Below are positions 22,392-48,274 of a stretch of DNA of 64,000 bases, piece after piece. The stretch is from the NCBI RefSeq assembly GCF_965641715.1, contig NZ_OZ282453.1; one strand, given 5' to 3'. Each line of letters begins with the position of its first letter. The stretch's first letter is position 1. Both the position numbers and the translations under genes were made by a program. The notes beneath the pieces were generated by a model that had not been told where the DNA came from, ran no database searches, and worked only from the letters and a program-made list of their open reading frames with translations. Source of the DNA: Escherichia coli. Its GTDB lineage: Bacteria > Pseudomonadota > Gammaproteobacteria > Enterobacterales > Enterobacteriaceae.

Positions 22392-22440
22392 TCCTTTTTA
22401 AGGCGGCTGATTAGCCGCCTTTTGCGAATATTGTTCAGGT

Positions 22441-24900: not shown

Positions 24901-24914
24901 TTAAGGAAAAGACG

Positions 24915-25646
24915 ATGACATTTGTTAAAGGATTCCCTTTGATTCTTCTGGTTGCCAGTATGTGCAGCCACGGCGCAGTGCAGCCTGACCGCACGCGCAT
25001 CATCTTTAATAGCAAAGATAAAGCAACCAGCCTGCGCGTGGAAAACCGCAGCGATAAACTCCCCTACCTCGCCTATTCATGGATAGAAAATGAAAAGGGA
25101 GAGAAAAGCGATGAATTTCTCGTCGCCCTGCCGCCTATCCAGCGACTGGAGCCAAAAGCGACTTCGCAGGTTCGGATCATGAAACAAGCCGCCACCGCGA
25201 AATTACCCACCGATCGCGAATCTCTCTTTTACTATAACCTGCGTGAAATTCCGCCTGTCCCGGAAGGCAGCGAGGGCCATGCGATCCTGCAAGTCGCCGT
25301 CCAAAGTCGCATTAAGCTATTCTGGCGACCCGCCGCATTACGCAAAAAAATGGGCGATCATGTTGAGCAACAGCTACAGGTTAGCCAGCAGAATAACCAG
25401 CTTACCCTGAAAAACCCGACCGGATACTATCTGACTATTGCCTATCTTGGGCGGGATGAGAAAGGCGTGCTGCCTGGCTTTAAAAGCACGATGGTCGCAC
25501 CGTTCAGTTCGGTCACCACCAGCACGGGCAGCTATAGCGGCAAGCAGTTTTATCTTGGCTACATGGACGACTACGGCGCATTGCGTATGAACACGCTCTC
25601 CTGCCAGCGGCAATGCCGCCTGCAGCCGGTGGAGAATAAAAAATGA
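24915..25646 (+). CDS. ybgP: fimbrial periplasmic chaperone
   Basis: 243 aa with signal peptide, PapD-like. Confidence 0.85.
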
Positions 25647-26704
25647 GATTCGCCAAAGGCGTGTTGCTCGCCATCTGTCTGATTTTTTTGCCGCTAAAAG
25701 CGGCGCTGGCGCTGAACTGCTATTTTGGTACCGCAAACGGCGCTGTAGAAAAATCGGAAGCTATTATGCCCTTCGCCGTTCCGGCCAATTCCAAACCCGG
25801 CGATAAAATCTGGGAATCTGACGATATAAAAATTCCGGTCTACTGTGACAACAACACAAACGGTAATTTTGAAAGCGAGCACGTCTACGCCTGGGTAAAC
25901 CCTTACCCCGGTATTCAGGATCCCTATTATCAATTGGGCGTAACCTATGAAGGCGTGGACTATGACGCAAGCCTTGGGAAAAGCCGCATCGACACGAATC
26001 AGTGCATCGACAGTAAGAATATTGATATTTACACCCCGGAGCAGATCATTGCGATGGGCTGGCAAAATAAACTTTGCTCCGGCGATCCAACCGTTATGCA
26101 CAAATCGCGGACGTTTGTGGCGCGTATGCGGCTTTACGTTAAAGTTCGCGCCATGCCGCCCCATGATTATCAGAGCAAACTCAGCGATTACATCGTCGTA
26201 CAGTTTGATGGCGCAGGCAGCGTGAACGAAGACCCTACCGCGAAGAATCTGAAATATCACATTACCGGTCTGGAAAATATCCGCGTGCTGGATTGCAGCG
26301 TCAACTTTGCTATCTCACCTGAAACCCAGGTCGTTGATTTTGGCCGATTTAACGTGCTGGATATTCGTCGCCATACGATGTCGCAGCAATTTAAAATAAC
26401 TACAACCAAATCACAAAACGACCAGTGTACCGACGGTTTTAAAGTCAGCTCTTCGTTTTATACCGATAAAACCCTTATCGACGAAGATAAATCACTGCTC
26501 ATTGGCAATGGCCTGAAGCTTCGATTGTTGGATGAAAATGCCTCACCCTATACTTTCAACAAATACAGTGAGTATGCCGATTTTACCAGCGACCTGTTAG
26601 TGTATGAAAAAACCTACACGGCAGAATTGTCATCCACGCCGGGTACGCCCATCGACGTTGGTCCCTTTGATACAGTGGTACTTTTCAAAATTAACTACAA
26701 CTGA
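25643..26704 (+). CDS. ybgO: fimbrial adhesin-like protein
   Basis: 353 aa with signal peptide; start overlaps the ybgP stop. Confidence 0.8.
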
Positions 26705-26852
26705 TTTAGCCTATTGCCCTTTCCAGCCGGAGAGGGCTTCTTCGGTTAATTGCCAATTTTCCGGCTTTTATTGATTACCGTTATTTTTTCCATGCCCGGC
26801 ATTCTTTATGCTGTATCGATACACCAAAGAGTAAATAATGAGGGAGCAAAGG

Positions 26853-27899
26853 ATGCCAGTTTTGCAGTGGGGAATGTTATGTGTGCTATCACTTCTCCTT
26901 TCTATTGGTTTCCTCGCGGTACATCTCCCGGCGGCATTATTACTTGGGCCGATGATCGCCGGGATCATCTTCAGTATGCGCGGGGTTACCCTGCAACTCC
27001 CCCGCTCCGCTTTTCTCGCCGCGCAGGCCATTCTTGGCTGCATGATTGCGCAAAACTTGACCGGTTCGATCCTGACCACGCTGGCGGTTAACTGGCCGAT
27101 TGTGTTAGCTATTTTACTGGTGACGTTGCTTTCCAGCGCTATCGTGGGATGGCTACTGGTGCGCTATAGCTCACTGCCCGGAAATACTGGTGCCTGGGGC
27201 TCCTCGCCTGGCGGGGCGGCGGCAATGGTCGCGATGGCGCAGGATTACGGCGCAGATATCCGCCTGGTGGCGTTTATGCAGTATCTGCGAGTGCTGTTTG
27301 TCGCGGGGGCCGCAGTTCTGGTCACGCGAATGATGCTGGGCGATAACGCTGAAGCGGTTAACCAGCATATCGTCTGGTTCCCGCCAGTGAGCATTAATCT
27401 CCTGCTTACTATTTTGCTCGCGGTCGTTGCCGGTACAGTGGGATGCCTGCTGCGTCTTCCTTCCGGCACGATGCTCATCCCGATGCTGGCGGGCGCAGTG
27501 CTCCAGTCTGGTCAGCTCATCACCATCGAACTACCGGAATGGCTGCTGGCGATGGCGTATATGGCAATTGGCTGGCGGATTGGTCTTGGTTTCGATAAAC
27601 AAATCTTACTGCGGGCACTACGCCCGCTACCACAAATCCTGCTGTCGATTTTTGCTCTGCTGGCTATTTGTGCGGGTATGGCGTGGGGACTGACACGGTT
27701 TATGCACATTGATTTTATGACTGCCTACCTCGCCACCAGCCCCGGCGGGCTTGATACCGTGGCGGTCATCGCCGCAGGGAGCAATGCCGATATGGCGCTC
27801 ATTATGGCGATGCAAACCCTGCGCCTGTTCAGTATTTTGCTGACAGGGCCTGCCATTGCGCGGTTTATTTCAACCTATGCGCCGAAACGTACGGCCTAG
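26853..27899 (+). CDS. abrB: AbrB-family membrane protein (putative regulator of aidB)
   Basis: Start taken at [21 protein letters not shown]…; 3' end overlaps the convergent nei stop. Confidence 0.85.
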
Positions 27900-28687
27900 T
27901 GCTGGCAGCCCGGACACCAGTAAAACGGGCGAGATGACAGCGTGGTTTTCTCAATGATGCCGCCACAGCGTTCGCACAGTTCGCCATCACGATGAAAAAC
28001 CTTAAAGCGAAACAGCGCCCCATGATGCTTATTCTCATCCACCTGCCCCCGCGTAGCGTAAGAAAACCGAGGAATATCCAGTAACGCGTGTGCGAGTGCA
28101 TCCAGTTGCGCCGCATTGAGGTCTTTCGCTTTATGATTTGCAGTCAACCCAACCTGCCAGAGGATCTCCACCCGCAAATAATTGCCAAGTCCTGCCAGAA
28201 ACGCCTGATCGAGCAGTAATCCAGCAAACTGACGGTTACGAAAGCGCGGCGACAATAATCGTTCCTTTACCACCTCCGGCGTCAGATTCGGATCCAGCAC
28301 ATCGGGACCAACGCGTTGTAAAAACGGATGCGTGGTCAGTTGTTCCGGGGTCAACATCTCAATATCCGAGGCACTATAAAGCAGAATGGTTTTGTCAGCC
28401 GTTTGCAGTTTTACCCGCAATACTCGCGTGGTCTGCGACTCTTCGCCGGTATCAACCACGCGCCAGACGCCATAAAGCTGATTATGGCTGTAGAGCGTTA
28501 AGTCGTTGGAAAAATGAGTTAACAACGCCTTACCACGCGTTTCCACATGGGTAACGTGTTGACCGATAAGTTGTGATTGATAAGTTTTTAACTGCGGGAA
28601 GGCAAACCAGACATCAGTTAGTGGTTTGCCTTTGATCGCCGCCTCCAGGTTATCCGCTGCACGGCGGATCTCCGGGCCTTCAGGCAT
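27896..28687 (-). CDS. nei: endonuclease VIII (DNA glycosylase/AP lyase)
   Basis: 263 aa, [26 protein letters not shown]…; C-terminal zinc finger CPGCQ. Confidence 0.95.
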
Positions 28688-28722
28688 GGTGATATCCTTT
28701 TTTCATTCTTTATTAAACGGGG

Positions 28723-29457
28723 TTATGCTGCGACAACAATCCCCTTTTCGGCAAATGTAGAGCGTAGTCGGCGGGCGAATGCCAGTGCGTGCTCGCCGTC
28801 GCCATGCAGGCAGACCGTTTGCGCCGTGACCGTTGCCCATTCGCCGGTGATACTTTTGACTCTGCCGTGTTGCACCATCTCCAACGTTTGCGCAAGCGCC
28901 TGTTCTTCGTCTTCAATCAGCGCGCCTGACTGGCTTCGCGGCACCAGCGAGCCGTCAGCCTGATAACCGCGATCGGCAAACACTTCCTCGCGCGTTGTCA
29001 GGCCATATTGCTTGCCTGCACGAATCAGCTCGCTTCCTGCCAGCCCAACGAGAACCAATGCTGGATCGCAAGCGTATACCGCTCTGGCGATGGCGTCAGC
29101 CAGTTGTGCCTCTTTCGCCGCCTGGTTGTATAACATGCCGTGCGGTTTGACATGACGCATTACACCGCCTTGCGCACGGGTAATCGTTGCCAGCGCGCCA
29201 ATTTGATACAGCGTCTGGGCGTAAACGGTTTCTGGCGGCAGCTGCATAGCGCTGCGACCAAAATTTTCCCTGTCGGGAAAACTCGGATGAGCGCCAATCG
29301 CGACACCATTTTTTATTGCTTCACGCACGCAAGCTTGCATGGTTTGCGCATCGCCTGCATGAAATCCACAGGCAATATTGGCAGAGGAAACCAGCGTTAA
29401 TAGCTCTGCGTCGCTGGTGCAGCCTTCGCCCAGATCGGCGTTCAGGTCAATTTTCAT
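28723..29457 (-). CDS. pxpA: 5-oxoprolinase subunit A (LamB/YcsF family)
   Basis: 244 aa, [36 protein letters not shown]…; formerly ybgL. Confidence 0.9.
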
Positions 29458-30379
29458 TGTGCAGTCGCCACGCTAATTGTTCAAAATAACGTTGCTGATC
29501 TTGCCGCGCTTTCAGTGCCTCTTCCAGTGAACACTGGACAAAATGAATCGGCTGACCGAGCGGAATTTGCGCCAGATGGTACATATCAGCCTCAATGATA
29601 CAGGCAATACGTGGATAACCACCGGTGGTCTGTGCGTCGTTCATCAACACAATGGGCTGCCCGTTATGCGGCACCTGCACCACGCCCGGTAACAAACCGT
29701 GAGATAACAGTTCGCGATCGGTGGTGCGTTTTAAAATTTGCCCCTGTAAGCGATAGCCCATGCGGTTACTTTGCGGGCTAAGCTGCCAGGGCGAACGCCA
29801 GAATGCATCCTGCGAGGCGCGATCGAACTCATGATATTCCGGCCCCGGCAAGGCGCGAATGCGGTTGCCCCACAGCAGCTGTTTAACGCCCTGCGCTTCC
29901 ATAAAATCACGCTTCGATTTGCCAATCGGGAGTCGGTCACCATCCTTCAGTAAACGGCCTTCCAGCCCGCCAATCCCCACTTTGAGATCGGTGCTGCATG
30001 ACCCCATTACCGGCGGAACATCAATACCACCCGCGACCGCCAGATAACTGCGCATCCCGTGCTGCGGGCGTTTAAGCGTTAAACGCTGGCCTGCTTTCAT
30101 CGGCAATCGCCAGCCGGTCCAGACGGCATTATCATCCAGCAGCGCTTCGCAACCGGCACCCGTCAGAGCAAACCACCCATCAGTTTCGAACTCAACCGTT
30201 AACTGACCGAGCGTGATCTCCAGCGCGGGGGCATTGGCGTCATTACCCACCAGCAGGTTAGCAATGCGTAACGCAGGCATATCCAGTGCGCCGCAGTGGC
30301 TGATACCCGACTGGCGAAAACCGTGACGACCGCCATCTTGCACAGTGGTATACATGCCCGCACGAATAATCTTCAGCAT
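29447..30379 (-). CDS. pxpC: 5-oxoprolinase subunit C
   Basis: 310 aa; formerly ybgK; overlaps its neighbours. Confidence 0.9.
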
Positions 30380-31029
30380 ACTCCCTCCTTTTGCGGTACA
30401 AAGCGCACGCTGTCTCCCGGACGTAATAAGATGGGTTCGTCACGCGCCGGATCAAACAGGCTGAGTGAGGTATGACCAATCAACTGCCAGCCACCCGGCG
30501 TTGCCAGCGGATAAACACCAGTCTGCGGCCCGCCGATCCCGACAGAACCTGCCGGAACGAGCAAGCGCGGTTCAGCGCGCCGTGGCGTGTGTAGTTGTTC
30601 CGGCAAACTCCCGAGATACGGGAAGCCCGGTTGAAAACCTAAGAACCAGACCACGTATTCCACGGAGGAGTGCAATTCAACAACCTGTTTTTCGCTCAAC
30701 CCGCAATGCGCCGCGACCACCGCCAAATCCGGTCCGCCTGCACCACCGTAAACCACCGGAATTTCAATAAAGCGAGACTCAGGTTCCAGGGCCTCGCTCT
30801 CCTCCCACCAGCGTTGCAAACGCTCTATGGCATCCAGCGCCAGCGACTCAGGATTACGCAAAATCACCGTGATATTGTTCATGCCGGGAATGGCTTCAAC
30901 CACATTCGGCATATCCACCAGACGCTGCGCCAGTCGCCAGATCCGTTTCTGGCTAGCCAGCGTCACCGGCGGTTCCAGTTCCAGCACTACCGCCGTTTCA
31001 CCTATCAGATAACAACGCGCTCGTTGCAC
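30373..31029 (-). CDS. pxpB: 5-oxoprolinase subunit B
   Basis: 218 aa; formerly ybgJ. Confidence 0.9.
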
Positions 31030-31051
31030 TTTCGATCCCTCTGATTATTCG

Positions 31052-31795
31052 TTATGCAGGATTAGGAATATCAATAAAGGTCACATCAAGATCGGTATTT
31101 TCGTTCAGCCACTCGCTCAATGCGCGAATACCACCACGTTCAGTGGCATGGTGACCTGCAGCATAAAAATGCAATCCCTGCTCGCGGGCTGAATGAATGG
31201 TCTGTTCAGAAACTTCGCCAGTAATAAAAGCATCCACGCCAAAACGCGCGGCACTATCGATAAAACTTTGCCCGCCGCCCGTGCACCAGGCAACACGCTG
31301 GACCACCTCAGGTCCGGTATCGCCACACCATAACGGCTTACGTCCCAGGCGCGCTTCAATCCAGGAAGCCAGCTCCAGTCCCGGCACAGGCATGGTCAGC
31401 TCTCCCCACGGCACCAACGGCTCAATTTCGCCCATGACCGTGATCCCCAGTAACGCCGCCAGCTGTGCGTTATTGCCCAGCTCAGGATGTGCGTCAAGCG
31501 GCAAATGCCAGCCATACAGGTTGATATCATTCGCCAGCAACGTTTTTAAACGGTTACGCTTCATGCCGCGAATGACCGGAGATTCGCCTTTCCAGAAGTA
31601 GCCATGATGCACAATGACCGCATCCGCGCCCAGACGCACTGCCTCATCGAGCAAAGCCTGGCTGGCGGTGACACCGGTAACAATTTTTTGCACCGTCTCT
31701 TTGCCTTCCACCTGCAAACCATTCGGCGCGTAATCACTAATCGCCGCGCTGTTCAGTTTTTCGTTAATCAGTTGTTCCAGTTCGGTGTTTTTCAT
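31052..31795 (-). CDS. ybgI: Nif3-family metal-binding protein (GTP cyclohydrolase 1 type 2 homolog)
   Basis: 247 aa, MKNTELEQLINEKLNSAAISDYAPNGLQVEG…. Confidence 0.9.
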   Translation of the reverse strand: MKNTELEQLINEKLNSAAISDYAPNGLQVEGKETVQKIVTGVTASQALLDEAVRLGADAVIVHHGYFWKGESPVIRGMKRNRLKTLLANDINLYGWHLPLDAHPELGNNAQLAALLGITVMGEIEPLVPWGELTMPVPGLELASWIEARLGRKPLWCGDTGPEVVQRVAWCTGGGQSFIDSAARFGVDAFITGEVSEQTIHSAREQGLHFYAAGHHATERGGIRALSEWLNENTDLDVTFIDIPNPA

Positions 31796-31882
31796 CTTCG
31801 CGCCTTCCGTATTCTGATAGCTACACCGTTAACATAGCGTTACCTCGCCTGTTCGTCGATAGCCAATCTTTTGACATATTAA

Positions 31883-33547
<1,665 letters not shown>

Positions 33548-33559
33548 TAGGCCAGCACC

Positions 33560-33675
33560 GATGCCTGATGCGACGCTTGACGCGTCTTATCAGGCCTACG
33601 TATTTCCTGCAATTTATTGAATTTGCACAAATTTGTAGGCTGGATAAGGCGTTCACGCCGCATCCGGCATCTGGG
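33560..33675. repeat. REP elements between dtpD and phr
   Basis: gcctgatgcgacgcttgacgcgtcttatcaggcctac and ggctggataaggcgttcacgccgcatccggc. Confidence 0.8.
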
Positions 33676-33696
33676 CTCGATTGCCTGACGCGTCTG

Positions 33697-35115
33697 TTAT
33701 TTCCCCTTCCGCGCCGCCTCATACGCTGCCAACGTTTGTACTCTCGCCTCTTTGTGCTCGACTATCGGTTGCGGATAATCCAGCTTCACACCTGCTTTCT
33801 GCGCCCACTTCCACGGCTCATGCACCGATTTCCCCGGTACATTGCGTAGTTCCGGTAGCCACTGGCGGATAAACTCGCCTTCGCGGTCAAATTTCTCGCC
33901 CTGGGTTGTCGGGTTGAAAATACGAAAATACGGCGCTGCATCAGTACCCGTAGAAGCCGCCCACTGCCAGCCACCGTTATTAGCTGCCAAATCACCATCA
34001 ATCAGCTGCGACATGAAATATCGCTCGCCTTCGCGCCAGTCGATCAATAAATCTTTCACCAGAAAACTGGCTGTAATCATCCGTAGCCGGTTATGCATCC
34101 AGCCAGTGCTATTAAGCTGACGCATGGCAGCATCGACAATCGGGTATCCCGTTTTGCCTTCCTGCCAGGCCTGTAAATGTGCGGGATTGCTCTGCCACTG
34201 CACACGATCCGTCCAGGCAATAAACGGACAATGTTTACACAACGAGGGGTGATACGTTATCAGGTGACGGTAAAACTCGCGCCAGATCAGCTCACTAAGC
34301 CAGACACTACCGGCCCCACCGTCCAGCGCCTGCGGCTGTTCCGCCAACAAGCGATGCAAACACTGGCGAGGCGATAACCCGCCCGTTGCCAGGCTGGCGG
34401 ACAAACGACTGGTGCCTTCCACTGCCGGAAAATCTCGTTGTTGCTCATATTCTCCGGCACCGTTCTGGCAAAACTGGCGTAATTGCGCAATCGCCGCTTT
34501 TTCTTCCACCGGGAAATGCGCAGTATCGAAAGACTGACGAGGATAATTCAGCGTAATGGATGGCGCGGGCTTTATCGATCCGCTACTACGAACTTTTGGT
34601 GCAGCGACGCACTCCGGCATCCCTTCCCGCAGCCGTTTCAGCCAGGCATTCTTAAAAGGCGTAAAGACTTTGTACATCTCATGATTGCCGGTCATCACCG
34701 CGCCAGGCGGCAGGATCACGCTGTCATCAAATCCTTCACACACCACGTTACGCAGCGTTCTCTCAACCTGCACATCCCGCGCCCGCTCATTCACCTCATA
34801 CTGATAGTTATAAAAAAGATGAGTAACGCTGTTTTCCGCGCACACCTGTTTAACTATTTCGACGCTGGCGGCAAAGTCATCCACTTCACGGAACAATAAA
34901 GGAATGCCTTTTTCCGCCAGCGCGATTTGTAGCCCGTTCAGTTGAGCATTGATAAGTTCAGCCTGACGCGGCGACATATTATGCGCCGCCCACTGGCGTG
35001 GTGTAGCGATATACAACGCCAGCACGCGTGCAGACGAATTGCGGCAGGCGGCAGCCAGCGCGAGATTATCATGCAGACGTAAATCCTGGCGAAACCAGAC
35101 CAGATGGGTAGTCAT
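33697..35115 (-). CDS. phr: deoxyribodipyrimidine photolyase
   Basis: 472 aa, MTTHLVWFRQDLRLHDNLALAAAC…. Confidence 0.95.
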   Translation of the reverse strand: MTTHLVWFRQDLRLHDNLALAAACRNSSARVLALYIATPRQWAAHNMSPRQAELINAQLNGLQIALAEKGIPLLFREVDDFAASVEIVKQVCAENSVTHLFYNYQYEVNERARDVQVERTLRNVVCEGFDDSVILPPGAVMTGNHEMYKVFTPFKNAWLKRLREGMPECVAAPKVRSSGSIKPAPSITLNYPRQSFDTAHFPVEEKAAIAQLRQFCQNGAGEYEQQRDFPAVEGTSRLSASLATGGLSPRQCLHRLLAEQPQALDGGAGSVWLSELIWREFYRHLITYHPSLCKHCPFIAWTDRVQWQSNPAHLQAWQEGKTGYPIVDAAMRQLNSTGWMHNRLRMITASFLVKDLLIDWREGERYFMSQLIDGDLAANNGGWQWAASTGTDAAPYFRIFNPTTQGEKFDREGEFIRQWLPELRNVPGKSVHEPWKWAQKAGVKLDYPQPIVEHKEARVQTLAAYEAARKGK

Positions 35116-35621
35116 AAAACTCCTGAATGGCGCAAGTTAATCACACGCGGCCAAAGTTCGAAATAACGCTGCCCTGAAAGCCAGGCGTCAGGATAAAGCG
35201 CCATATAGTGTTTGATACGCATCAGCGGCGCAAGAAGCGGTTGCTCGCCACGGCGATAACTGTCGATAAGCGCCGCCAGCTGCTGGCGTTCTGTGGCATC
35301 AATATGCGGGCGAAAATACCCCTGAACGTGCATCAAAACGTTGGTGTGATCGCGCGGGTTGGCGGGATGAGAAAGCAAAACAATTACGCGTTGGCGGTAC
35401 TGGCTGTAAAAATCATCCAGATTTTGCCACTGGTGAATATCAGCCACGAACGGGCCAAGTTTGCGGTATTCCGGCTGGGAATGAGCCAGAAAGACGAGTT
35501 TATAGCGGCTGTGATAATCGAGAAGCGCCCCGCGCGTTAAGCCATGTTCTTTCAGTCGATGTAACTCATGAAGGGCGAAGATACGGATTAGGGTGCTGTC
35601 ATCAAATCGTTGCTGATTCAT
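35112..35621 (-). CDS. ybgA: DUF1722-family protein YbgA
   Basis: Start taken at MNQQRFDDSTLIRIF… (169 aa); the ORF track's longer form to 35711 is less likely. Overlaps phr by 4 nt. Confidence 0.8.
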   Translation of the reverse strand: MNQQRFDDSTLIRIFALHELHRLKEHGLTRGALLDYHSRYKLVFLAHSQPEYRKLGPFVADIHQWQNLDDFYSQYRQRVIVLLSHPANPRDHTNVLMHVQGYFRPHIDATERQQLAALIDSYRRGEQPLLAPLMRIKHYMALYPDAWLSGQRYFELWPRVINLRHSGVL

Positions 35622-35721
35622 TACTGCTCCTGAACGGTTTACAGGAGTAAGTGTAGACGGCGAAAAGAAAAAACCGCCAGCGTTTCCACTAGCGGTTTTC
35701 AATGTATTCAAAACTCAGCAA

Positions 35722-35928
35722 TCAGTAAAAATCACCGGTTGCCTTTTCGGCCTGATCCATCCAAACCGGTTTATCGCTGGTTTTCGACCAGACGCGATGC
35801 AGGTAGCTGTAAAAGCGGGCGCGGTCTTTCCAGAAAAGCATGAAAGGCAGCGCCAGAACGCCCGCTGCAACCGCATAAGTACGGCGTAAAAAGATAAGCC
35901 ATGCAGGATATTCTCTGTAGAGTTCCAT
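35722..35928 (-). CDS. ybfA: small membrane-associated protein YbfA (DUF2517)
   Basis: 68 aa, [33 protein letters not shown]…. Confidence 0.85.
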
Positions 35929-36129
35929 ACTTTTCTCCCCCTTTTGTATCTACCCGGTGAATGGCACCGGAAAATGAATTTGTTTATCTGATGAAAATAG
36001 TACCGCCTTTTGTGTAATTTCACTACTCATCCGACCACTTATTTTTGCTTATTGATGGTTTATTTACATTCACCCTGTAATTAAGTTACACAAAAGTTAA
36101 ATTAATACTAAACATTAGTTAAATCATGG

Positions 36130-36239
36130 CTTTTGCCATTTTTATACTTTTTTTACACCCCGTCCGCAGATTTTTGCGAAATCTTTGCAGCCAGAATTCT
36201 ACCCTTCCGGTATCACTTTTAGGCCACTGGAGGTGCACT
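36130..36239 (+). promoter_or_regulatory. kdpFABC promoter with KdpE-binding T-rich direct repeat
   Basis: catttttatactttttttacaccccg at about 36137-36162, upstream of ttgcga; matches the K-12 kdp promoter/operator as recalled. Confidence 0.6.
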
Positions 36240-36329
36240 GTGAGTGCAGGCGTGATAGCCGGCGTGTTGCTGGTGTTTTTATTACTGGGTTATCTGGTTT
36301 ATGCCCTGATCAATGCGGAGGCATTCTGA
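36240..36329 (+). CDS. kdpF: K+-transporting ATPase subunit F
   Basis: 29 aa (M)[28 protein letters not shown] with a GTG start; the stop overlaps the kdpA start. Confidence 0.85.
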
Positions 36330-38002
36330 TGGCTGCGCAAGGGTTCTTACTGATTGCCACGTTTTTACTGGTATTAATGGTGCTGGCGCGTCCTTTAGGC
36401 AGCGGGCTGGCGCGGCTGATTAATGACATTCCTCTTCCAGGTACAGCGGGCGTTGAACGTATACTCTTTCGTTTACTTGGCGTCTCTGACCATGAGATGA
36501 ACTGGAAGCAATATCTTTGTGCCATTCTCGGCCTGAACATGCTGGGGCTGGCGGTGCTGTTTTTTATGTTGCTCGGTCAGCACTATCTGCCGCTTAATCC
36601 ACAGCAGTTGCCGGGGCTGTCGTGGGATCTGGCGCTCAATACCGCCGTCAGCTTTGTCACGAATACCAACTGGCAATCTTATAGCGGTGAAACCACGTTG
36701 AGCTATTTCAGCCAGATGGCGGGCTTAACGGTGCAAAACTTTCTTTCTGCCGCCAGCGGGATTGCGGTGATTTTTGCCCTCATTCGTGCATTTACCCGCC
36801 AGAGCATGAGCACACTCGGGAATGCCTGGGTCGATCTGCTACGCATCACGTTATGGGTGCTCGTCCCTGTGGCGTTGGTGATCGCACTGTTTTTTATTCA
36901 ACAAGGTGCGCTGCAAAACTTTCTGCCCTATCAGGCAGTGAATACCGTTGAAGGAGCGCAACAGCTGTTACCAATGGGTCCGGTGGCTTCTCAGGAAGCG
37001 ATCAAGATGCTCGGTACTAACGGCGGTGGCTTCTTTAATGCCAACTCGTCGCATCCGTTTGAAAACCCAACCGCACTGACCAACTTCGTGCAGATGCTGG
37101 CGATCTTCTTGATCCCAACAGCGCTGTGCTTTGCCTTTGGTGAAGTGACGGGCGATCGCCGCCAGGGGCGCATGTTGCTGTGGGCGATGTCAGTGATTTT
37201 TGTCATCTGCGTAGGCGTGGTGATGTGGGCAGAAGTTCAGGGTAATCCTCATCTGCTGGCGCTCGGCGCAGACAGCAGCATCAATATGGAAGGTAAAGAG
37301 AGCCGTTTCGGCGTGCTGGTCAGTAGCCTGTTTGCGGTCGTGACTACGGCGGCGTCCTGTGGCGCGGTGATTGCGATGCATGATTCGTTTACCGCTCTCG
37401 GTGGCATGGTGCCGATGTGGCTGATGCAAATTGGTGAAGTGGTATTCGGCGGTGTCGGTTCTGGTCTTTACGGCATGATGCTGTTTGTCCTGCTGGCGGT
37501 GTTTATTGCCGGGCTGATGATTGGTCGTACACCGGAATATCTGGGTAAAAAAATCGACGTACGTGAGATGAAACTGACTGCACTGGCGATTCTGGTCACC
37601 CCGACGCTGGTGCTGATGGGCGCGGCGCTGGCAATGATGACCGACGCCGGACGTAGCGCCATGCTCAACCCTGGCCCGCATGGTTTTAGCGAAGTGCTGT
37701 ACGCCGTGTCATCCGCCGCTAACAACAACGGCAGCGCCTTTGCCGGATTAAGCGCCAACTCTCCGTTCTGGAACTGTTTACTGGCGTTCTGCATGTTTGT
37801 CGGTCGCTTCGGAGTGATTATCCCGGTGATGGCAATTGCCGGTTCGCTGGTAAGTAAAAAGAGCCAACCCGCCAGCTCCGGCACGCTGCCAACGCACGGC
37901 CCGCTGTTTGTTGGCCTGTTAATCGGCACCGTGTTGCTGGTTGGCGCACTGACCTTTATCCCTGCCCTGGCGCTTGGTCCGGTGGCGGAATATCTCTCCT
38001 GA
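36329..38002 (+). CDS. kdpA: K+-transporting ATPase subunit A
   Basis: 557 aa from [24 protein letters not shown]…. Confidence 0.95.
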
Positions 38003-38024
38003 TGATATTGAGTGAGCACTGAAT

Positions 38025-40073
38025 ATGAGTCGTAAACAACTGGCGCTATTCGAACCAACACTTGTCGTTCAGGCGCTGAAAGAAGCGGTGAAAAAATTAA
38101 ACCCGCAGGCGCAATGGCGCAATCCGGTGATGTTTATCGTCTGGATCGGCAGTCTGCTGACCACCTGTATTAGCATCGCGATGGCAAGCGGCGCGATGCC
38201 TGGCAATGCGCTGTTTAGCGTGGCCATTAGCGGCTGGCTGTGGGTCACCGTACTGTTCGCTAATTTCGCCGAGGCGCTGGCAGAAGGCCGCAGTAAAGCG
38301 CAGGCCAACAGCCTGAAAGGGGTGAAAAAAACTGCTTTTGCTCGCAAGCTGCGCGAACCGAAATATGGCGCTGTGGCAGACAAAGTTCCTGCCGATCAAC
38401 TGCGTAAAGGTGACATCGTGCTGGTAGAAGCTGGCGATATTATCCCCTGCGATGGTGAAGTCATTGAAGGCGGCGCATCGGTCGATGAAAGCGCCATCAC
38501 CGGGGAATCGGCACCGGTGATCCGTGAATCCGGTGGCGATTTTGCCTCCGTCACTGGCGGCACGCGTATTCTTTCTGACTGGCTGGTGATTGAGTGTAGC
38601 GTTAACCCCGGCGAGACATTTCTGGATCGGATGATCGCGATGGTGGAAGGCGCACAGCGACGTAAAACGCCGAACGAGATTGCCCTGACCATCCTGCTGA
38701 TTGCCCTGACTATCGTCTTTTTACTGGCAACCGCCACGCTGTGGCCGTTTTCCGCGTGGGGCGGTAATGCAGTCAGTGTAACGGTACTGGTGGCGCTGCT
38801 GGTCTGTCTGATCCCAACCACTATTGGCGGCCTGTTGTCAGCGATCGGCGTCGCCGGGATGAGTCGGATGCTGGGCGCGAATGTGATTGCCACCAGCGGA
38901 CGTGCAGTTGAAGCGGCGGGTGACGTTGACGTCCTGCTGCTGGATAAAACCGGCACCATCACACTCGGTAACCGTCAGGCGTCGGAGTTTATCCCCGCGC
39001 AGGGCGTGGATGAAAAAACGCTGGCTGACGCCGCACAACTGGCTTCGCTGGCTGATGAAACGCCGGAAGGCCGCAGTATTGTGATCCTCGCCAAGCAGCG
39101 TTTTAACCTGCGCGAGCGCGATGTGCAGTCGCTCCATGCCACCTTTGTACCGTTTACTGCGCAAAGCCGGATGAGCGGGATCAACATCGACAACCGCATG
39201 ATCCGTAAAGGTTCTGTCGATGCCATTCGCCGCCATGTTGAGGCTAACGGTGGTCACTTCCCTGCCGATGTTAATCAAAAAGTCGATCAGGTTGCGCGTC
39301 AGGGGGCCACGCCGCTGGTGGTGGTGGAAGGTTCTCGTGTGCTGGGCGTTATTGCGCTGAAAGATATCGTTAAAGGCGGCATTAAAGAACGCTTCGCGCA
39401 ACTGCGCCAAATGGGCATTAAAACGGTGATGATTACCGGCGATAACCGTCTGACTGCCGCCGCCATTGCCGCGGAAGCGGGTGTCGATGATTTTCTCGCC
39501 GAAGCGACACCAGAGGCCAAGCTGGCATTGATCCGTCAGTATCAGGCGGAAGGCCGTTTGGTGGCGATGACCGGCGATGGCACCAACGATGCTCCGGCGC
39601 TGGCGCAAGCAGATGTCGCGGTGGCGATGAACTCTGGTACTCAGGCGGCGAAAGAAGCGGGCAATATGGTGGATCTCGACTCTAACCCGACCAAGTTGAT
39701 CGAGGTGGTGCATATTGGCAAACAGATGCTGATGACCCGTGGCTCGCTGACCACCTTCAGCATTGCCAACGATGTGGCGAAATACTTCGCCATTATTCCG
39801 GCGGCGTTCGCGGCAACGTATCCGCAGTTAAATGCGCTGAACATCATGCGCCTGCATTCGCCCGACTCCGCCATTCTCAGTGCGGTGATTTTCAACGCCT
39901 TGATTATCGTCTTTTTGATTCCCCTGGCGTTAAAAGGCGTGAGTTATAAACCGCTTACCGCTTCTGCCATGTTGCGCCGTAACTTATGGATTTACGGTCT
40001 GGGTGGGCTGCTGGTGCCGTTTATTGGTATCAAAGTCATTGATTTACTGCTGACCGTTTGCGGTCTGGTGTGA
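38025..40073 (+). CDS. kdpB: K+-transporting P-type ATPase subunit B
   Basis: 682 aa; P-type ATPase motifs DKTGT and [11 protein letters not shown] present. Confidence 0.97.
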
Positions 40074-40081
40074 GGTTTACC

Positions 40082-40654
40082 ATGAGTGGATTACGTCCGG
40101 CATTATCGACATTTATCTTTCTGTTATTGATTACTGGCGGCGTTTACCCGCTGCTGACCACCGCGCTGGGGCAATGGTGGTTTCCCTGGCAGGCCAACGG
40201 TTCGTTGATCCGTGAAGGTGATACGGTGCGCGGTTCGGCATTAATCGGGCAGAATTTTACCGACAACGGCTATTTTCAGGGTCGCCCGTCGGCAACGGCA
40301 GAAATGCCCTATAATCCACAGGCTTCTGGCGGGAGCAATCTGGCAGTCAGTAACCCCGAGCTGGATAAACAGATAGCCGCACGCGTTGCCGCATTACGGG
40401 CCGCTAACCCGGATGCCAGCACGAGCGTTCCGGTTGAACTGGTGACGGCATCGGCAAGCGGGCTGGACAATAACATCACCCTACAAGCGGCGGCCTGGCA
40501 GATCCCACGCGTAGCGAAAGCGCGTAATCTCAGCGTTGAACAGCTCACGCAACTGATCGCAAAATACAGCCAACAACCACTGGTGAAATATATCGGCCAG
40601 CCGGTCGTCAACATTGTCGAACTCAATCTGGCGCTGGATAAACTTGATGAATAA
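40082..40654 (+). CDS. kdpC: K+-transporting ATPase subunit C
   Basis: 190 aa from [25 protein letters not shown]…. Confidence 0.93.
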
Positions 40655-43331
40655 CGAACCCTTACGTCCCGACCCCGATCGTCTGCTGGAACAAACTGCC
40701 GCGCCGCATCGGGGGAAGCTGAAAGTTTTCTTCGGTGCCTGCGCAGGCGTCGGGAAGACCTGGGCGATGCTGGCAGAAGCCCAGCGACTGCGGGCGCAAG
40801 GGCTGGATATTGTGGTTGGCGTGGTAGAAACCCACGGGCGGAAAGATACCGCCGCCATGCTGGAAGGGCTGGCTGTTCTGCCGCCAAAACGCCTGGCGTA
40901 CCGTGGGCGGCACATCAGCGAGTTTGATCTCGATGCCGCCCTCGCCCGCCGTCCGGCGCTGATCTTAATGGACGAACTGGCGCACAGTAATGCGCCAGGT
41001 TCTCGTCATCCTAAACGCTGGCAGGATATCGAAGAACTGCTGGAAGCTGGCATTGATGTTTTCACAACCGTCAACGTTCAGCATCTGGAAAGTCTGAATG
41101 ATGTGGTCAGCGGCGTCACCGGAATTCAGGTACGGGAAACCGTGCCCGATCCTTTTTTCGATGCCGCCGACGACGTGGTGCTGGTGGACTTGCCCCCGGA
41201 CGATCTGCGCCAGCGGCTGAAAGAAGGCAAAGTCTATATTGCCGGGCAGGCGGAGCGCGCCATTGAACATTTTTTCCGCAAAGGCAATCTGATCGCCCTG
41301 CGCGAACTGGCACTGCGCCGTACTGCCGATCGCGTTGATGAGCAAATGCGCGCCTGGCGGGGGCATCCTGGCGAAGAGAAAGTGTGGCACACGCGCGACG
41401 CGATCCTTTTATGCATCGGCCATAACACCGGCAGCGAAAAACTGGTCCGCGCGGCGGCGCGGCTGGCGTCACGGCTGGGGAGCGTCTGGCACGCGGTGTA
41501 TGTTGAAACCCCTGCCCTGCATCGCTTACCGGAGAAAAAACGTCGGGCAATTCTCAGCGCCTTACGTCTGGCGCAGGAGCTGGGCGCGGAGACGGCAACA
41601 CTTTCTGATCCAGCGGAAGAGAAAGCGGTAGTGCGTTATGCCCGTGAACATAATCTCGGCAAGATTATTCTCGGTCGCCCAGCCTCGCGCCGCTGGTGGC
41701 GTCGGGAAACGTTTGCTGACCGACTGGCGCGCATCGCCCCCGATCTCGATCAGGTGCTGGTCGCGCTTGATGAACCACCCGCCCGCACGATTAACAACGC
41801 GCCGGATAGCCGCTCTTTTAAAGACAAGTGGCGGGTACAGATTCAGGGATGCGTGGTTGCCGCCGCGTTATGCGCCGTTATCACCTTAATTGCCATGCAG
41901 TGGCTGATGGCGTTTGATGCCGCCAACCTGGTGATGCTGTATCTACTTGGCGTGGTGGTGGTGGCGCTATTTTATGGACGCTGGCCTTCGGTGGTTGCTA
42001 CCGTCATTAATGTGGTGAGTTTCGATCTCTTTTTTATCGCCCCACGCGGCACGCTCGCCGTCTCTGATGTGCAATATCTGCTGACCTTCGCGGTGATGTT
42101 AACCGTCGGGCTGGTGATCGGGAACCTTACTGCTGGCGTGCGTTATCAGGCGCGGGTAGCCCGTTACCGCGAACAACGCACACGGCACTTATATGAAATG
42201 TCGAAAGCTCTGGCTGTGGGCCGCAGTCCGCAGGACATCGCCGCCACCAGCGAACAATTTATTGCCTCCACGTTTCATGCCCGCAGTCAGGTGTTGTTGC
42301 CCGATGACAACGGTAAATTGCAGCCGTTAACACATCCGCAAGGAATGACGCCGTGGGACGATGCCATCGCGCAGTGGAGTTTTGATAAAGGCCTGCCTGC
42401 GGGTGCGGGCACCGACACGTTACCCGGCGTGCCGTACCAGATTTTGCCGTTAAAAAGCGGTGAGAAAACCTACGGGCTGGTGGTGGTGGAACCGGGGAAT
42501 CTGCGTCAGTTGATGATCCCGGAACAGCAGCGCCTGCTGGAGACGTTTACGCTGTTAGTCGCCAATGCGCTTGAGCGGCTGACGCTGACCGCCAGCGAAG
42601 AACAGGCGCGGATGGCAAGCGAACGTGAACAGATCCGCAACGCCCTGCTGGCGGCGCTTTCGCATGATTTACGCACTCCGCTTACGGTGCTGTTTGGTCA
42701 GGCAGAAATCTTAACGCTCGATCTGGCAAGCGAAGGATCACCCCACGCCCGCCAGGCCAGCGAGATTCGTCAGCATGTGCTGAACACTACCCGACTGGTG
42801 AATAATCTACTGGATATGGCGCGAATTCAGTCCGGCGGCTTTAATTTGAAGAAAGAGTGGTTAACGCTGGAAGAAGTAGTCGGCAGCGCGCTGCAAATGC
42901 TGGAACCGGGTTTATCGTCGCCCATCAATCTTTCTCTGCCAGAACCGCTGACCTTAATCCACGTTGACGGGCCACTCTTTGAACGGGTGCTGATTAATCT
43001 GCTGGAGAACGCGGTGAAATATGCGGGTGCGCAGGCCGAAATTGGTATCGATGCCCACGTTGAGGGCGAAAATCTACAACTGGATGTCTGGGATAACGGC
43101 CCCGGTCTTCCGCCAGGCCAGGAGCAGACGATATTTGATAAGTTTGCTCGCGGGAATAAAGAGTCGGCAGTACCGGGGGTAGGGCTTGGACTGGCAATTT
43201 GTCGGGCGATAGTGGATGTACACGGGGGCACTATTACCGCGTTCAACCGACCGGAAGGTGGTGCCTGTTTTCGTGTTACACTTCCCCAGCAAACTGCCCC
43301 TGAACTTGAAGAATTTCATGAGGATATGTGA
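40647..43331 (+). CDS. kdpD: sensor histidine kinase KdpD
   Basis: 894 aa from [16 protein letters not shown]…; contains the H-box (LSHDLRTPL) and ATPase domain; overlaps kdpC by 8 nt. Confidence 0.95.
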
Positions 43332-44005
43332 CAAACGTTCTGATTGTTGAAGATGAACAGGCTATTCGTCGCTTTCTGCGCACGGCGCTGGAGGGCGACG
43401 GGATGCGCGTCTATGAGGCCGAAACGCTGCAACGCGGCTTGCTGGAAGCGGCTACCCGTAAGCCAGATTTGATTATTCTCGATCTCGGCCTGCCCGATGG
43501 TGATGGGATTGAGTTTATCCGCGACCTGCGCCAGTGGAGCGCGGTGCCGGTGATTGTGCTTTCCGCACGCAGCGAAGAGAGCGACAAAATCGCCGCGCTG
43601 GATGCCGGAGCGGATGATTATCTAAGTAAGCCGTTTGGCATTGGCGAATTGCAGGCCCGTCTGCGCGTCGCTTTACGCCGCCACTCCGCCACCGCCGCGC
43701 CCGATCCGCTGGTGAAATTTTCCGATGTTACCGTCGATTTAGCCGCCCGCGTGATTCACCGGGGTGAGGAAGAGGTGCATCTCACCCCGATTGAGTTTCG
43801 CCTGCTGGCAGTGCTGCTCAACAACGCCGGAAAAGTGCTCACCCAGCGCCAACTCCTTAACCAGGTGTGGGGGCCAAACGCGGTCGAACACAGTCATTAT
43901 TTGCGTATTTATATGGGGCATCTGCGACAAAAACTGGAGCAGGATCCCGCCCGCCCCCGCCATTTCATTACCGAAACCGGTATTGGGTATCGGTTTATGC
44001 TTTAG
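43328..44005 (+). CDS. kdpE: response regulator KdpE (OmpR family)
   Basis: 225 aa, [31 protein letters not shown]…. Confidence 0.95.
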   Translation: MTNVLIVEDEQAIRRFLRTALEGDGMRVYEAETLQRGLLEAATRKPDLIILDLGLPDGDGIEFIRDLRQWSAVPVIVLSARSEESDKIAALDAGADDYLSKPFGIGELQARLRVALRRHSATAAPDPLVKFSDVTVDLAARVIHRGEEEVHLTPIEFRLLAVLLNNAGKVLTQRQLLNQVWGPNAVEHSHYLRIYMGHLRQKLEQDPARPRHFITETGIGYRFML

Positions 44006-44288
44006 GGGTTGAAATGCCGGATGCGGCGTAAACGCCTTATCCAGCCTACTCATCGTCCCGTAGGCATGATAAGACGCGTCAGCGTCGCATCAGGCATGGC
44101 TCTGTGAATAACGTCGGCAAAAACTGGAAAAAGACCCCGCCCTCGCCATTTCATTACCGAAACCGGTATTGGGTATCGGTTTATGCTTTAGGGGCTGACT
44201 TGCCGGATGCGGCGTGAACGCCTTATCCAGCCTACTCATCGTCCCGTAGGCATGATAAGACGCGTCAGCGTCGCATCAGGCATTGGCA
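43927..44288. repeat. tandem direct duplication (~190-bp period, 2 copies) of the kdpE 3' end plus a REP pair
   Basis: Copy 1 at 43927-44098 and copy 2 at 44117-44288 are near-identical; each carries the last ~80 nt of kdpE followed by gccggatgcggcg…ccttatccagcctac and gcctgatgcgacgctgacgcgtcttatcatgcctac palindromes. Confidence 0.85.
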
Positions 44289-44304
44289 CTCATGGCTAAA
44301 TATT

Positions 44305-44799
44305 TTAATGTGTATTTATCGCTTTCAACTCTTGCTGGCATTTTTCTGACTGGCAGCGTCGCAACTCAATAATCCCGACATGCATCATCGAGCCAATAAA
44401 GCCGCTTTCGCTGACATAATCCTCATTAACTATCGGTCGAGTGCCGGGCTTGCCCTGGCAAACCAGCATAAAAAATGAGGTGTAGCACTGCCAGCCGGGA
44501 TTTAAACCGGCTTTTTCTTGTGCTGACATATCGTGAAGATAAATAAGTTCTTTTTCGTTCCCGCCTGACAACTGCCAGCGGCGGGTATTATCAGGTAAGT
44601 TATCGCTACAACAATTTGTCTTACACCGGGAAGGCGCAATATTTACCGCAATGCTACCCTTTAACCCTCTGGTTTTATCTTTAGGGGTCAGTAACCAGTC
44701 GCCAGCTAATGATGATTGTTCAGGTTGGGCACATGCAGTCAGCAGTAGTGTGGCGGCAATGAATGTTACTCTTACGACCAGACTCCTTTTGGTCTTCAT
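44305..44799 (-). CDS. ybfP: lipoprotein YbfP
   Basis: 164 aa with a lipoprotein signal (…LLLTAC…). Confidence 0.85.
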   Translation of the reverse strand: MKTKRSLVVRVTFIAATLLLTACAQPEQSSLAGDWLLTPKDKTRGLKGSIAVNIAPSRCKTNCCSDNLPDNTRRWQLSGGNEKELIYLHDMSAQEKAGLNPGWQCYTSFFMLVCQGKPGTRPIVNEDYVSESGFIGSMMHVGIIELRRCQSEKCQQELKAINTH

Positions 44800-44849
44800 T
44801 TTGAATTCCCTTGAGCTATTCAGTTTGTTGGCAAAGTGCGCGTTGTTTT

Positions 44850-44885
<36 letters not shown>

Positions 44886-44931
44886 AAATGATGCAAATTC
44901 AATATATTGCACCATCAGGCAGTCATACGTA

Positions 44932-44966
44932 AAAAAGGGCGATCTTGCGACCGCCCTTTTTTTATT
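44932..44966. terminator. intrinsic terminator 3' of pgm, bidirectional-looking
   Basis: aaaaaagggcgatcttgcgaccgccctttttttatt: GC stem flanked by an A-run and a T-run. Confidence 0.75.
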
Positions 44967-44974
44967 AAATGTGT

Positions 44975-46615
44975 TTACGCGTTTTTCAGAACTTCGCTAA
45001 CAATCTCAACCGCTTCTTTCTCAATCTGCTTGCGATGTTCTTCACCGAGGAAGCTTTCGCAGTAGATCTTATATGCGTCTTCCGTGCCTGACGGACGCGC
45101 GGCGAACCAGCCGTTGTCAGTCATCACTTTCAGACCGCCAATAGAAGCACCGTTGCCCGGAGCAGCTGTCAGGCGCGCGGTGATCGGGTCACCTGCCAGG
45201 GTGCTGGCGCTCACCATTTCCGGAGACAGCTTAGACAGCGCCGCTTTTTGTGCGGAAGTCGCAGCTGCCTGCAAACGGTTGTAGCTCGGCGCACCAAAGC
45301 GTTTTGCCAGTTCGTTGTAGTGTTCCTGCGGGTTCTTACCGGTGACAGCGGTGATTTCCGCCGCGAGCAGACACATGATGATGCCGTCTTTGTCGGTGGA
45401 CCACGGCGTGCCGTCGAAACGCAGGAAGGAAGCCCCTGCGCTCTCTTCGCCGCCAAAGCCGAAGCTGCCGTCGAACAGACCATCAACAAACCATTTGAAA
45501 CCTACCGGGACTTCTACCAGTTTACGGCCCAAGTCGTTGACCACACGGTCGATCATCGCAGATGAAACCAGCGTTTTACCGACGGCAACATCTTTGCCCC
45601 ACTGCGGACGATGCTGGAACAGGTAATTGATCGCCACCGCCAGGTAGTGGTTCGGATTCATCAAACCTGCCGGAGTGACGATACCGTGACGGTCATAATC
45701 CGGGTCGTTAGCAAACGCCAGATCGAACTTATCACGCAGTGCCAGCAGGCCTGCCATTGCACACTCAGAGGAGCAGTCCATACGGATCGCGCCGTCTTTA
45801 TCAAGGTGCATAAAGCGGAAGGTTTGATCGACCTGATCGTTAACGATAGTCAGGTTGAGGTTGTAATACTCGCCAATACGCTTCCAGTATTCGATACCGG
45901 AACCGCCCAGCGGATCAACGCCAAGCGTCAGGCCCGCTTTCTGAATCGCCGCCATATCAACGATATCGGCCAGCCCTTCCACGAACGGCTGCACCAGATC
46001 CTGCTCTTTCACATGACCGGATGCCATCGCTTCGTCGAGGGAGATACGCTTCACGCCTTTCAGGCCATCGGCCAGCAGTGCGTTGGCACGATCTTCCACC
46101 ACTTTAGTGACGTTGGTATCAGCCGGGCCACCATTTGGCGGATTGTACTTGATACCACCATCTTCCGGCGGGTTATGGGACGGTGTAATAACGATACCGT
46201 CTGCCAGCGGGCCACCTTTTTTATTGTGAACCAGGATGGCATTGGAAACGGCAGGCGTCGGGGTGAAGCCATTGTTTTCCTGCACAATAACATCTACGCC
46301 GTTCGCTGCCAGCACTTCCAGAACGGAAATAAATGCAGGTTCGGACAGGGCGTGAGTATCTTTACCCACATAGCAAGGGCCAGTGATGCCGTTTTTCGCA
46401 CGTTCTTCAGCAATTGCCTGAGCGATCGCCAGAATGTGCGGCTCGTTAAAGCTGTGGCGCGCTGCACTGCCACGGTGACCGGAAGTACCGAATTTCACCG
46501 CGTGCTCCGCATTCCCTGCTTCTGGTTTCAGTACATAATATTGCGCCGTCAGTTGGGCGACGTTAATCAAATCACTCTGTTGTGCAGGTTGGCCTGCACG
46601 ATTGTGGATTGCCAT
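44975..46615 (-). CDS. pgm: phosphoglucomutase
   Basis: 546 aa from [22 protein letters not shown]…; active-site TSGHRG motif (read as GTSGHRGS) present. Confidence 0.95.
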
Positions 46616-46640
46616 TGCTTTGTCCTTTGTCTGCAACGTT

Positions 46641-47186
46641 TTAGATAGTTCCGCAAACCTTCTCAATCAATTCCGCCGGGAATTGCATCGACTGCATGAT
46701 GTGTTCGATCATGCTGCATTTACGGCCGGTGTTGGTGTTGGTGATCACCCAATACGGCGTGCCTGGCACATGTTTCGGCTTGGTCTGATTACCATTTTTC
46801 AGCAGCGTTTGTTCATCTGCCGCAAAGTAAACGCGTGTACGACCGTGCAACGATTCCGTTGCTTCGGCAAACGCCTGGGCGTCAAGAGAATATAGTGTAG
46901 ACAACAGCAGCATAAAGCGATTGACCGCTCGCTTTTGCTCTGCGTATTCATCCGAAAGCAGAAGTTCACGCATTGCGCGAACCTTGTCTTTAATCGTTTT
47001 GACCGGCTTCGCTTCGACGATAGCAGGTGACGCAACGCGAACCTCTTTCGTCACCGGAGCAGCAGGCTGTGATGCGGCGGAAAATTTCAACATACGCCGT
47101 AAAATGTCGGATGCGCTCTCGCCGATATGCTTAGTGTGGCTGGCAATATAGCTGTAGAGTTCATCATCAACTTCAATCGTTTTCAT
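46641..47186 (-). CDS. seqA: replication initiation negative regulator SeqA
   Basis: 181 aa from [33 protein letters not shown]…. Confidence 0.95.
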
Positions 47187-47370
47187 CTTAATCCAGTGCA
47201 GTGTCTTAGCTGAATACAAGTCGCCAGGAGTATATGAATAAATCCCGGCAGCGGATAGCGTCAAGCCTGGCTTGCAGAAAAACTCGGAATAAACCTTATT
47301 TGTTGCAGCCCTGTGGCACAATGGTCAACATAATACCCTAACCCGACAACGCGAAAAAAAGAACTTTGCC

Positions 47371-48135
47371 ATGAAATTGAATATCCGCGCGCAAACTGCA
47401 CAAAACCAGCACAATAATTCTCCCATCGTTCTTGTCCATGGTCTGTTTGGCAGCCTCGACAACCTTGGCGTACTGGCTCGCGATCTGGTAAACGATCACA
47501 ATATCATCCAGGTTGATATGCGTAACCACGGTCTTTCACCGAGAGATCCGGTAATGAATTACCCGACGATGGCGCAGGATCTTGTTGATACCCTGGATGC
47601 ACTGCAGATCGACAAAGCAACATTTATCGGTCACTCCATGGGCGGTAAAGCGGTAATGGCACTTACTGCACTGGCCCCCGATCGCATCGATAAACTGGTG
47701 GCGATCGATATCGCACCGGTCGACTATCACGTACGCCGTCATGATGAGATTTTCTCGGCTATCAACGCGGTCAGTGAATCGGACGCACAAACTCGCCAGC
47801 AAGCAGCAGCAATAATGCGCCAGCATCTTAATGAAGAAGGGGTGATTCAGTTTCTGTTGAAATCTTTTGTTGACGGGGAGTGGCGCTTTAACGTGCCGGT
47901 ATTGTGGGATCAGTATCCGCATATTGTGGGTTGGGAGAAAATCCCGGCATGGGATCACCCTGCCCTGTTTATCCCTGGTGGTAATTCTCCGTATGTTAGC
48001 GAGCAGTACCGTGATGATTTACTGGCACAATTTCCACAGGCACGGGCGCATGTGATTGCAGGCGCGGGTCACTGGGTCCATGCTGAAAAACCGGATGCGG
48101 TATTACGCGCTATCCGTCGCTATCTCAATGATTAA
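47371..48135 (+). CDS. ybfF: alpha/beta-hydrolase esterase YbfF
   Basis: 254 aa with a GHSMGG nucleophile elbow. Confidence 0.9.
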   Translation: MKLNIRAQTAQNQHNNSPIVLVHGLFGSLDNLGVLARDLVNDHNIIQVDMRNHGLSPRDPVMNYPTMAQDLVDTLDALQIDKATFIGHSMGGKAVMALTALAPDRIDKLVAIDIAPVDYHVRRHDEIFSAINAVSESDAQTRQQAAAIMRQHLNEEGVIQFLLKSFVDGEWRFNVPVLWDQYPHIVGWEKIPAWDHPALFIPGGNSPYVSEQYRDDLLAQFPQARAHVIAGAGHWVHAEKPDAVLRAIRRYLND

Positions 48136-48274
48136 CGCAACTGATTAAAAACCCAGCGTCCGCGTCGCTTTCCGCGCGTGGGCGTTGGCGTGACTCATCG
48201 CGCTGATGTATTATGGCGCGCTATCCATCCGGGCAGAGGCCTGGCTGATTGTTTCCCCCGAAGTCACCAAGATC

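Follow-up and report, generated by a model that had tools for sequence, protein, structure and literature searches.

The DNA analyzed in this study, a stretch of 64,000 nucleotides (64 kb; hereafter, the window), was a segment of the Escherichia coli chromosome, the orientation of which was opposite to that of K-12, as judged from annotation and colinearity. The gene order ran from sucABCD/sdhCDAB/gltA through dtpD, phr, ybgA, ybfA, and kdpFABCDE to pgm, seqA, fur, glnS, and nagE. The ybfA and ybgA genes, the names of which agreed with the annotation of colinear genomes, were adjacent and in the same orientation between kdpFABC and phr, and ybgA and phr overlapped by 4 nt (Table 1). In the sequence and the list of open reading frames, the stop codon of ybfA (35724..35722) and the ATG of ybgA (35621..35619) were separated by exactly 100 bp, in agreement with the original prediction that the two genes were direct neighbours about 100 bp apart. 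Since this was an observation of gene adjacency, chance was not an issue, and the adjacency was confirmed as real.

Table 1. Features of the ybfA-ybgA site and the adjacent genes (positions in the window).
Feature	Position	Strand	Description	Basis
phr	33697..35115	-	deoxyribodipyrimidine photolyase, 472 aa; second gene of the ybgA-phr unit	ORF list and annotation
ybgA	35112..35621	-	169 aa, stand-alone DUF1722	ORF list; Pfam PF08349, E 5.8e-35
ybfA-ybgA spacer	35622..35721	-	exactly 100 bp; unoccupied RhsC ('position 5') site	
Ribosome-binding site of ybgA, AGGAG	35627..35631	-	5 nt before ATG	read from sequence; conserved in alignments
Sigma-S-type extended -10 box, TCTACACTTA	35648..35657	-	-10 of ybgAp1	K-12 homology
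8 nt, CTTTTCGC	35660..35667	-	only in unoccupied alleles	junction alignments
Intrinsic terminator hairpin of ybfA	35669..35700	-	14 bp stem, GAAA loop	terminator scan
ybfA	35722..35928	-	68 aa, DUF2517; upstream of the site	ORF list; Pfam PF10725, E 2.9e-34

Several differences from other strains were found elsewhere in the window. No close match to it was present among complete RefSeq E. coli genomes, and the best relatives were the baboon isolates A30 (~99% over 54 kb) and PapRG-04-4 (99.4% over 901 bp); finished genomes from the lineage of this strain are thus scarce. K-12 carries a speFL-speF-potE-ybfI-ybfG block of ~5.1 kb from ybfP to kdpE (4911..10059 of the K-12 locus L127); this block was missing at ~44003..44301, and only ybfP lay between pgm and kdpE, as was also the case in A30. 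Between glnS and nagE, a 9.2-kb island (54167..63347) stood where A30, the closest genome, had 153 bp. Its products were assigned by Pfam to a DeoR regulator, a PdxA-family dehydrogenase, a four-carbon acid-sugar kinase (SBD_N and NBD_C), an Fe-alcohol dehydrogenase, a DHDPS/NanA-family lyase, TerC, BNR_2 (sialidase-like), a YhcH/YjgK protein, and a CitMHS transporter, and from these families it looks like a catabolic island of the sugar-acid or sialic-acid type. By colinearity with A30, the region beside sucD (1..~8800) encoded methylaspartate mutase subunit E, methylaspartate ammonia-lyase, an AtuA-family protein, DUF4387, a dicarboxylate symporter, class I fumarate hydratase, CobO, and a LysR regulator; K-12 presumably lacks a methylaspartate-type cluster of this kind. 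Rfam matches to naRNA4 (three copies) and ES036 at 11609..11769, 16141..16211, and 33592..33634 were REP-derived intergenic repeats that were unrelated to the Rhs site.

The 100 bp proved to be a functional spacer, a point that the original prediction did not make. A G+C-rich hairpin began 21 nt past the stop codon of ybfA and was followed by a run of six T (35668..35663; a U-run in the transcript); its fold was -22.6 kcal/mol (z = -3.25 against shuffled sequences), and it was conserved in K-12, O157, Escherichia spp., and Citrobacter. The predicted structure is that of a textbook intrinsic (rho-independent) terminator of ybfA. On the ybgA side, the sequence TCTACACTTAc matched 10 of the 11 positions of KCTAYRCTTAA, the consensus for the extended -10 of sigma-S that PMC5650638 cites from Weber et al. 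2005, including the C at -13, and it lay about 16 nt ahead of AGGAG. The -10 of the K-12 sigma38 promoter ybgAp1 is recorded at NC_000913.2 position 738191 (supplement of bioRxiv 10.1101/2020.02.05.936344), and this position was the A of cTACACT in the printed K-12 sequence, i.e., the homologue of the box in the window. The -10 pattern occurred twice in the window (0.5 expected). When the core [GT]CTA[CT][AG]CTT was searched for in the 250 nt downstream of ybfA, it was found in 43 of 113 Enterobacterales loci among the matches listed (chance expectation, ~0.008 matches per locus), including Citrobacter, Pseudocitrobacter, Enterobacter, Siccibacter, Serratia, Pantoea, Mixta, and Edwardsiella, and the box [GT]CTACACTT was mostly located 20-35 nt ahead of the ybgA/rudS start. 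These results suggested that the box probably represents a conserved -10 of the sigma-S type for the rudS/ybgA-phr unit, and that in the window it most likely acts as the active ybgA-phr promoter with a predicted start near 35643. A canonical sigma-70 promoter is not claimed, because a simple sigma-70 scan gave no promoter in the spacer; its sole match in 35000..36300 was inside phr (35092..35065).

In the annotation of K-12 MG1655, the order is ybfA-rhsC-ybfB-ybfO-ybfC-ybfQ-ybfL-ybfD-ybgA-phr, with ybfO and ybfL as pseudogenes, and the distance from the ybfA stop to the ybgA start is 9,660 bp, compared with 100 bp in the window. The gene order given in the original prediction, with the RhsC region between ybfA and ybgA, was therefore correct. 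The alignment against K-12 that it had proposed as a check mapped the break to 35659/35668 (BLAST and pairwise alignment): homology on the ybfA side passed through the terminator hairpin and the T-run (…GGCGGTTTTTT) and stopped at 35668, and that on the ybgA side started at CGTCTACACTTACTCC (35659). Consequently, 9,568 bp in K-12 (2396..11963 of the K-12 locus L001) stood where the window had only the 8 nt CTTTTCGC.

No Rhs core, tip, immunity, or H-rpt sequence was found in the whole 64 kb. When the seven products of the K-12 RhsC element were compared with the window by tblastn, there was nothing significant (best E = 0.037 over 20 aa): the best value for RhsC itself (1,397 aa) was 0.89, with no large YD-repeat rhs ORF in the window, and YbfB, YbfO, YbfC, YbfQ, YbfL, and YbfD gave nothing below E = 0.03. 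A blastn search of the window with the whole 9,568-bp element returned chance matches of 16-27 nt only, and the right end of the element (CACAAAnnTCATTT) was absent from the spacer. Six-frame scans of the 64 kb revealed zero matches to the core-end motif PxxxxDPxG[LW], which precedes the variable C-terminal toxin tip of Rhs proteins, and neither the YD repeat (Y.YD..G[NR]) nor the VENN motif; CDI motifs, an immunity ORF, an orphan tip, and an H-rpt/ISAs1 unit were also absent from the window. The sequence, the ORF list, and the tblastn, blastn, and motif scans thus agreed with the proposal that the site carried no Rhs core, toxin tip, or immunity genes, and the "empty Rhs site" corresponded to a true unoccupied 'position 5' (kdpA..phr) of Jackson et al. 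2009 (PMC2935791). The further claim that the window contained no polymorphic toxin was correct as a conclusion, but an empty site alone does not prove it; it follows from the motif and homology tests, from the Pfam content of the 9.2-kb island, and from the colinearity (~99%) of positions 1..54166 with A30, in which the annotation listed only housekeeping, fimbrial, and metabolic genes.

Homologous loci outside E. coli were collected from species-representative genomes using a degenerate YbfA peptide pattern (13 letters), which gave at least 120 loci; the matches listed do not include E. fergusonii, E. marmotae, E. ruysiae, or the E. coli type strain. Among the matches listed, 62 of 120 loci had ybgA/rudS behind ybfA in the same orientation (59 within ~1.4 kb), and phr followed without a ybgA match in ~30 further loci (for example, Enterobacter and Kluyvera), while many of the remaining listed loci were too short for the downstream order to be judged. 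The Salmonella arizonae locus (L070) contained neither ybgA nor phr within 1.5 kb downstream of ybfA. Spacers of the empty type were found in Escherichia sp. SCPM-O-B-8794 (L026; 85-91% identical to the window) and 'E. coli' E69 (L067; ~95%), in Citrobacter (L012 and L112), and in Trabulsiella (L061), each with the terminator, 8-10 nt, (C)GTCTACACTTA, and the ribosome-binding site in this order. The spacer of the window was colinear with all of these and contained no remnant of an element end, and the 8-10 nt in the empty sites of L026, L067, and Citrobacter were homologous to CTTTTCGC. E. albertii (L009) was colinear with K-12 at 91.5% through ybfA and the junction into rhsC, and in E. whittamii (L086) the match to the K-12 left junction extended 142 bp into the element, beyond which the sequences differed.

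The gene at the ybgA position also varied in domain content among these genera. YbgA of E. coli corresponds to the DUF1722 half of the tRNA 4-thiouridine desulfidase RudS, and its stand-alone status has been published (PMC11417400). The corresponding gene in C. werkmanii contained both TudS (PF04463) and DUF1722, and in Citrobacter sp. FP75 the N-terminus of TudS (MNKRIPVGIRACL) was fused directly to DUF1722. This fusion looks like an internal deletion, which we read as part of an apparent deletion series at a conserved locus.

The occupancy of the site was estimated in 5,426 complete E. coli genomes. With a 901-bp query spanning the junction, a contiguous match was scored as empty and a split match as the rest; the K-12-type junction query combined the ybfA terminator with the left end of the RhsC element. 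The site was empty in 1,310 genomes (~24%), most of which had a B2-type allele, whereas 3,716 (68%) had the K-12-type left junction, 114 (2%) had an alternative Rhs element with the junction of strain 2018-05-2CC, and about 5% belonged to none of the three classes; since the collection is biased to clinical isolates, these percentages are not population frequencies. The value for strain typing that the original prediction had attached to the empty site is accordingly modest, about a quarter of complete genomes being empty and most of them of the B2 type.

In an evenly spaced sample of 44 occupied genomes, the match on the ybgA side ended at 35659 in 43, and at 35674 in the remaining one (H85). 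The right end CACAAAnnTCATTTnCnAn, abutting CGTCTACAC, was common to K-12, O157:H7 NE122 (7,876 bp between ybfA and ybgA), and 2018-05-2CC. The shared right end and break point suggest one old insertion followed by internal turnover, in line with the model of C-terminal displacement proposed by Jackson et al. 2009. A target-site duplication was also considered, because the K-12 right end TCATTTCTCAA resembled TCTTTTCGC of the empty site at about 7 of 9 positions; this resemblance is taken as unproven, and the conservation of the right end as CACAAAnnTCATTT in three different occupants, together with its T-rich composition, speaks against such a duplication.

Two types of empty allele were distinguished. 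In a sample of 15 empty genomes, 13 (including APEC O1) were only ~93% identical to the window, the haplotype of which was the rarer non-B2 empty type, found in PapRG-04-4, A30, and a few dozen other genomes. This haplotype shared 98-100% identity with occupied O157:H7 in its flanks. Within the 5' arm of the terminator (35683..35690), the window, PapRG-04-4, A30, and 10035776-3 had CCGCTAGTGG, in comparison with CCGCCAGCGG in occupied K-12 and O157; these two C-to-T changes convert two G-C pairs of the terminator to G-U wobbles. In the aligned genomes, CCGCTAGTGG is a sequence-level haplotype marker of the non-B2 empty allele.

Taken together, the interval is very probably an ancestral, never-interrupted ybfA-ybgA spacer within the kdp-ybfA-ybgA-phr neighbourhood, namely the unoccupied allele of the RhsC/Rhs site, which would function as a spacer in three parts: the intrinsic terminator of ybfA; after the 8 nt, a sigma-S-type box that would drive ybgA-phr; and the ribosome-binding site with the ATG of ybgA. 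In occupied strains, the Rhs element lies exactly between the T-run of the terminator and the -10 box and takes the place of the 8 nt. Because these 8 nt were missing from every occupied allele examined and were shared with the empty sites of other lineages, and because no trace of either element end was present, we infer that the allele descends from a never-occupied lineage and is not a product of excision. Both alleles, empty and occupied, are old.

A minor competitor of this reading is a secondary loss, in which a clean deletion removed an Rhs element that the lineage once had at the site. It was inferred by Jackson et al. [quoted passage not shown] However, CTTTTCGC is absent in occupied alleles, common to the empty sites of other Escherichia lineages, and present in a diverged form in Citrobacter, and a deletion would have no template from which to rebuild these 8 nt; neither element end has left a remnant in the window. 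A clean deletion is therefore considered to be improbable. Loss through homologous replacement by an empty allele is indistinguishable from retention, which is the best explanation.

The possibility that a repetitive Rhs element collapsed or was dropped in assembly, with ybfA falsely joined to ybgA, deserves mention since Rhs cores occur in multiple copies, and short-read assemblies break at such repeats; the E. whittamii contig ends 1.8 kb past ybfA. The same junction was nevertheless seen in the 1,310 finished genomes, including the nearest relatives A30 and PapRG-04-4, and it holds the empty-specific 8 nt that a collapse could not create, which makes such an artefact extremely unlikely. It is scarcely more probable that the real feature is another element hidden in the spacer (a small RNA, a small ORF, or a mobile-element scar). 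The hairpin is strong and the box is conserved across genera, but a scan of the whole window at the Rfam gathering score gave nothing in the spacer and only REP-type families elsewhere (naRNA4 and ES036), and the ORFs overlapping the spacer were only the 5'-extended ybgA frame (TTG at 35711) and a 102-aa frame overlapping ybfA. A hairpin and T-run right after a stop codon are the classic layout of a terminator, and the box fits both the sigma-S -10 consensus and the promoter recorded in K-12.

The empty site is an ordinary, already described presence/absence polymorphism, published for exactly this locus: the variable presence of rhs among strains at position 5 (kdpA..phr; defined in Table 3 of that paper) was reported by Jackson et al. 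2009 (PMC2935791), and the rhs genes at b0699-b0706 were tabulated in four laboratory strains in the E. coli W genome paper (PMC3032704). Since variable occupancy among E. coli strains had been published, the finding matters little alone. The present analysis adds base-exact coordinates of the insertion point, a rough census, and evidence that the empty allele is the ancestral spacer and not a scar. As a modestly useful by-product, a conserved sigma-S -10 box was located immediately beside the Rhs element, and the element of K-12 supplies upstream parts of the ybgA-phr promoter.

Compared with known systems, the RhsC element of K-12 occupies the same chromosomal site, with flanks (kdpFABC and ybfA; ybgA and phr) 97% identical to those of the window, which has none of the 9,568-bp element and 8 nt in its stead. 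The B2-type empty site (e.g., that of APEC O1) has the same 100 bp gap and the same layout of terminator, -10 box, and ribosome-binding site as the window, but it is only ~88-92% identical around the spacer and differs in the sequence from the stop codon to the terminator; its flanks are ~88-99% identical to those of the window, which instead resemble those of occupied non-B2 strains. The alternative element of 2018-05-2CC, a strain 98.7% identical to the window over 25 kb, has its right boundary at CGTCTACAC as in K-12 and the same 71-bp right end, but no DNA similarity to the rhsC core of K-12. This element (5,054 bp; 4111..9164 of L005) starts directly after the ybfA stop, so that the terminator is removed, and contains a DcrB-like remnant, an RHS pseudogene, a 97-aa ORF without a Pfam match, and a SymE type I toxin gene.

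The promoter region differs in a corresponding manner. The -10 of K-12 ybgAp1 (the RegulonDB name; sigma-38), cTACACT, is kept in the window, and the Rhs element ends 1-2 nt upstream of this box. In K-12, the parts upstream of 738186, i.e., the -35-like TTCACA (738165..738170) and the UP elements of ybgAp1, lie inside the Rhs right end, as does the whole of the second sigma-38 promoter, ybgAp2 (-10 at 738137). The window has the ybfA terminator at this position, and the strain therefore lacks the K-12 -35, UP elements, and ybgAp2. Because these parts are inside the element, empty and occupied strains differ in the regulatory setting of ybgA-phr. The presence or absence of Rhs may possibly rewire the ybgA-phr (photolyase) promoter, a tentative proposal under which photolyase expression and read-through from ybfA could differ, and comparisons of photolyase expression across strains should allow for the Rhs state.
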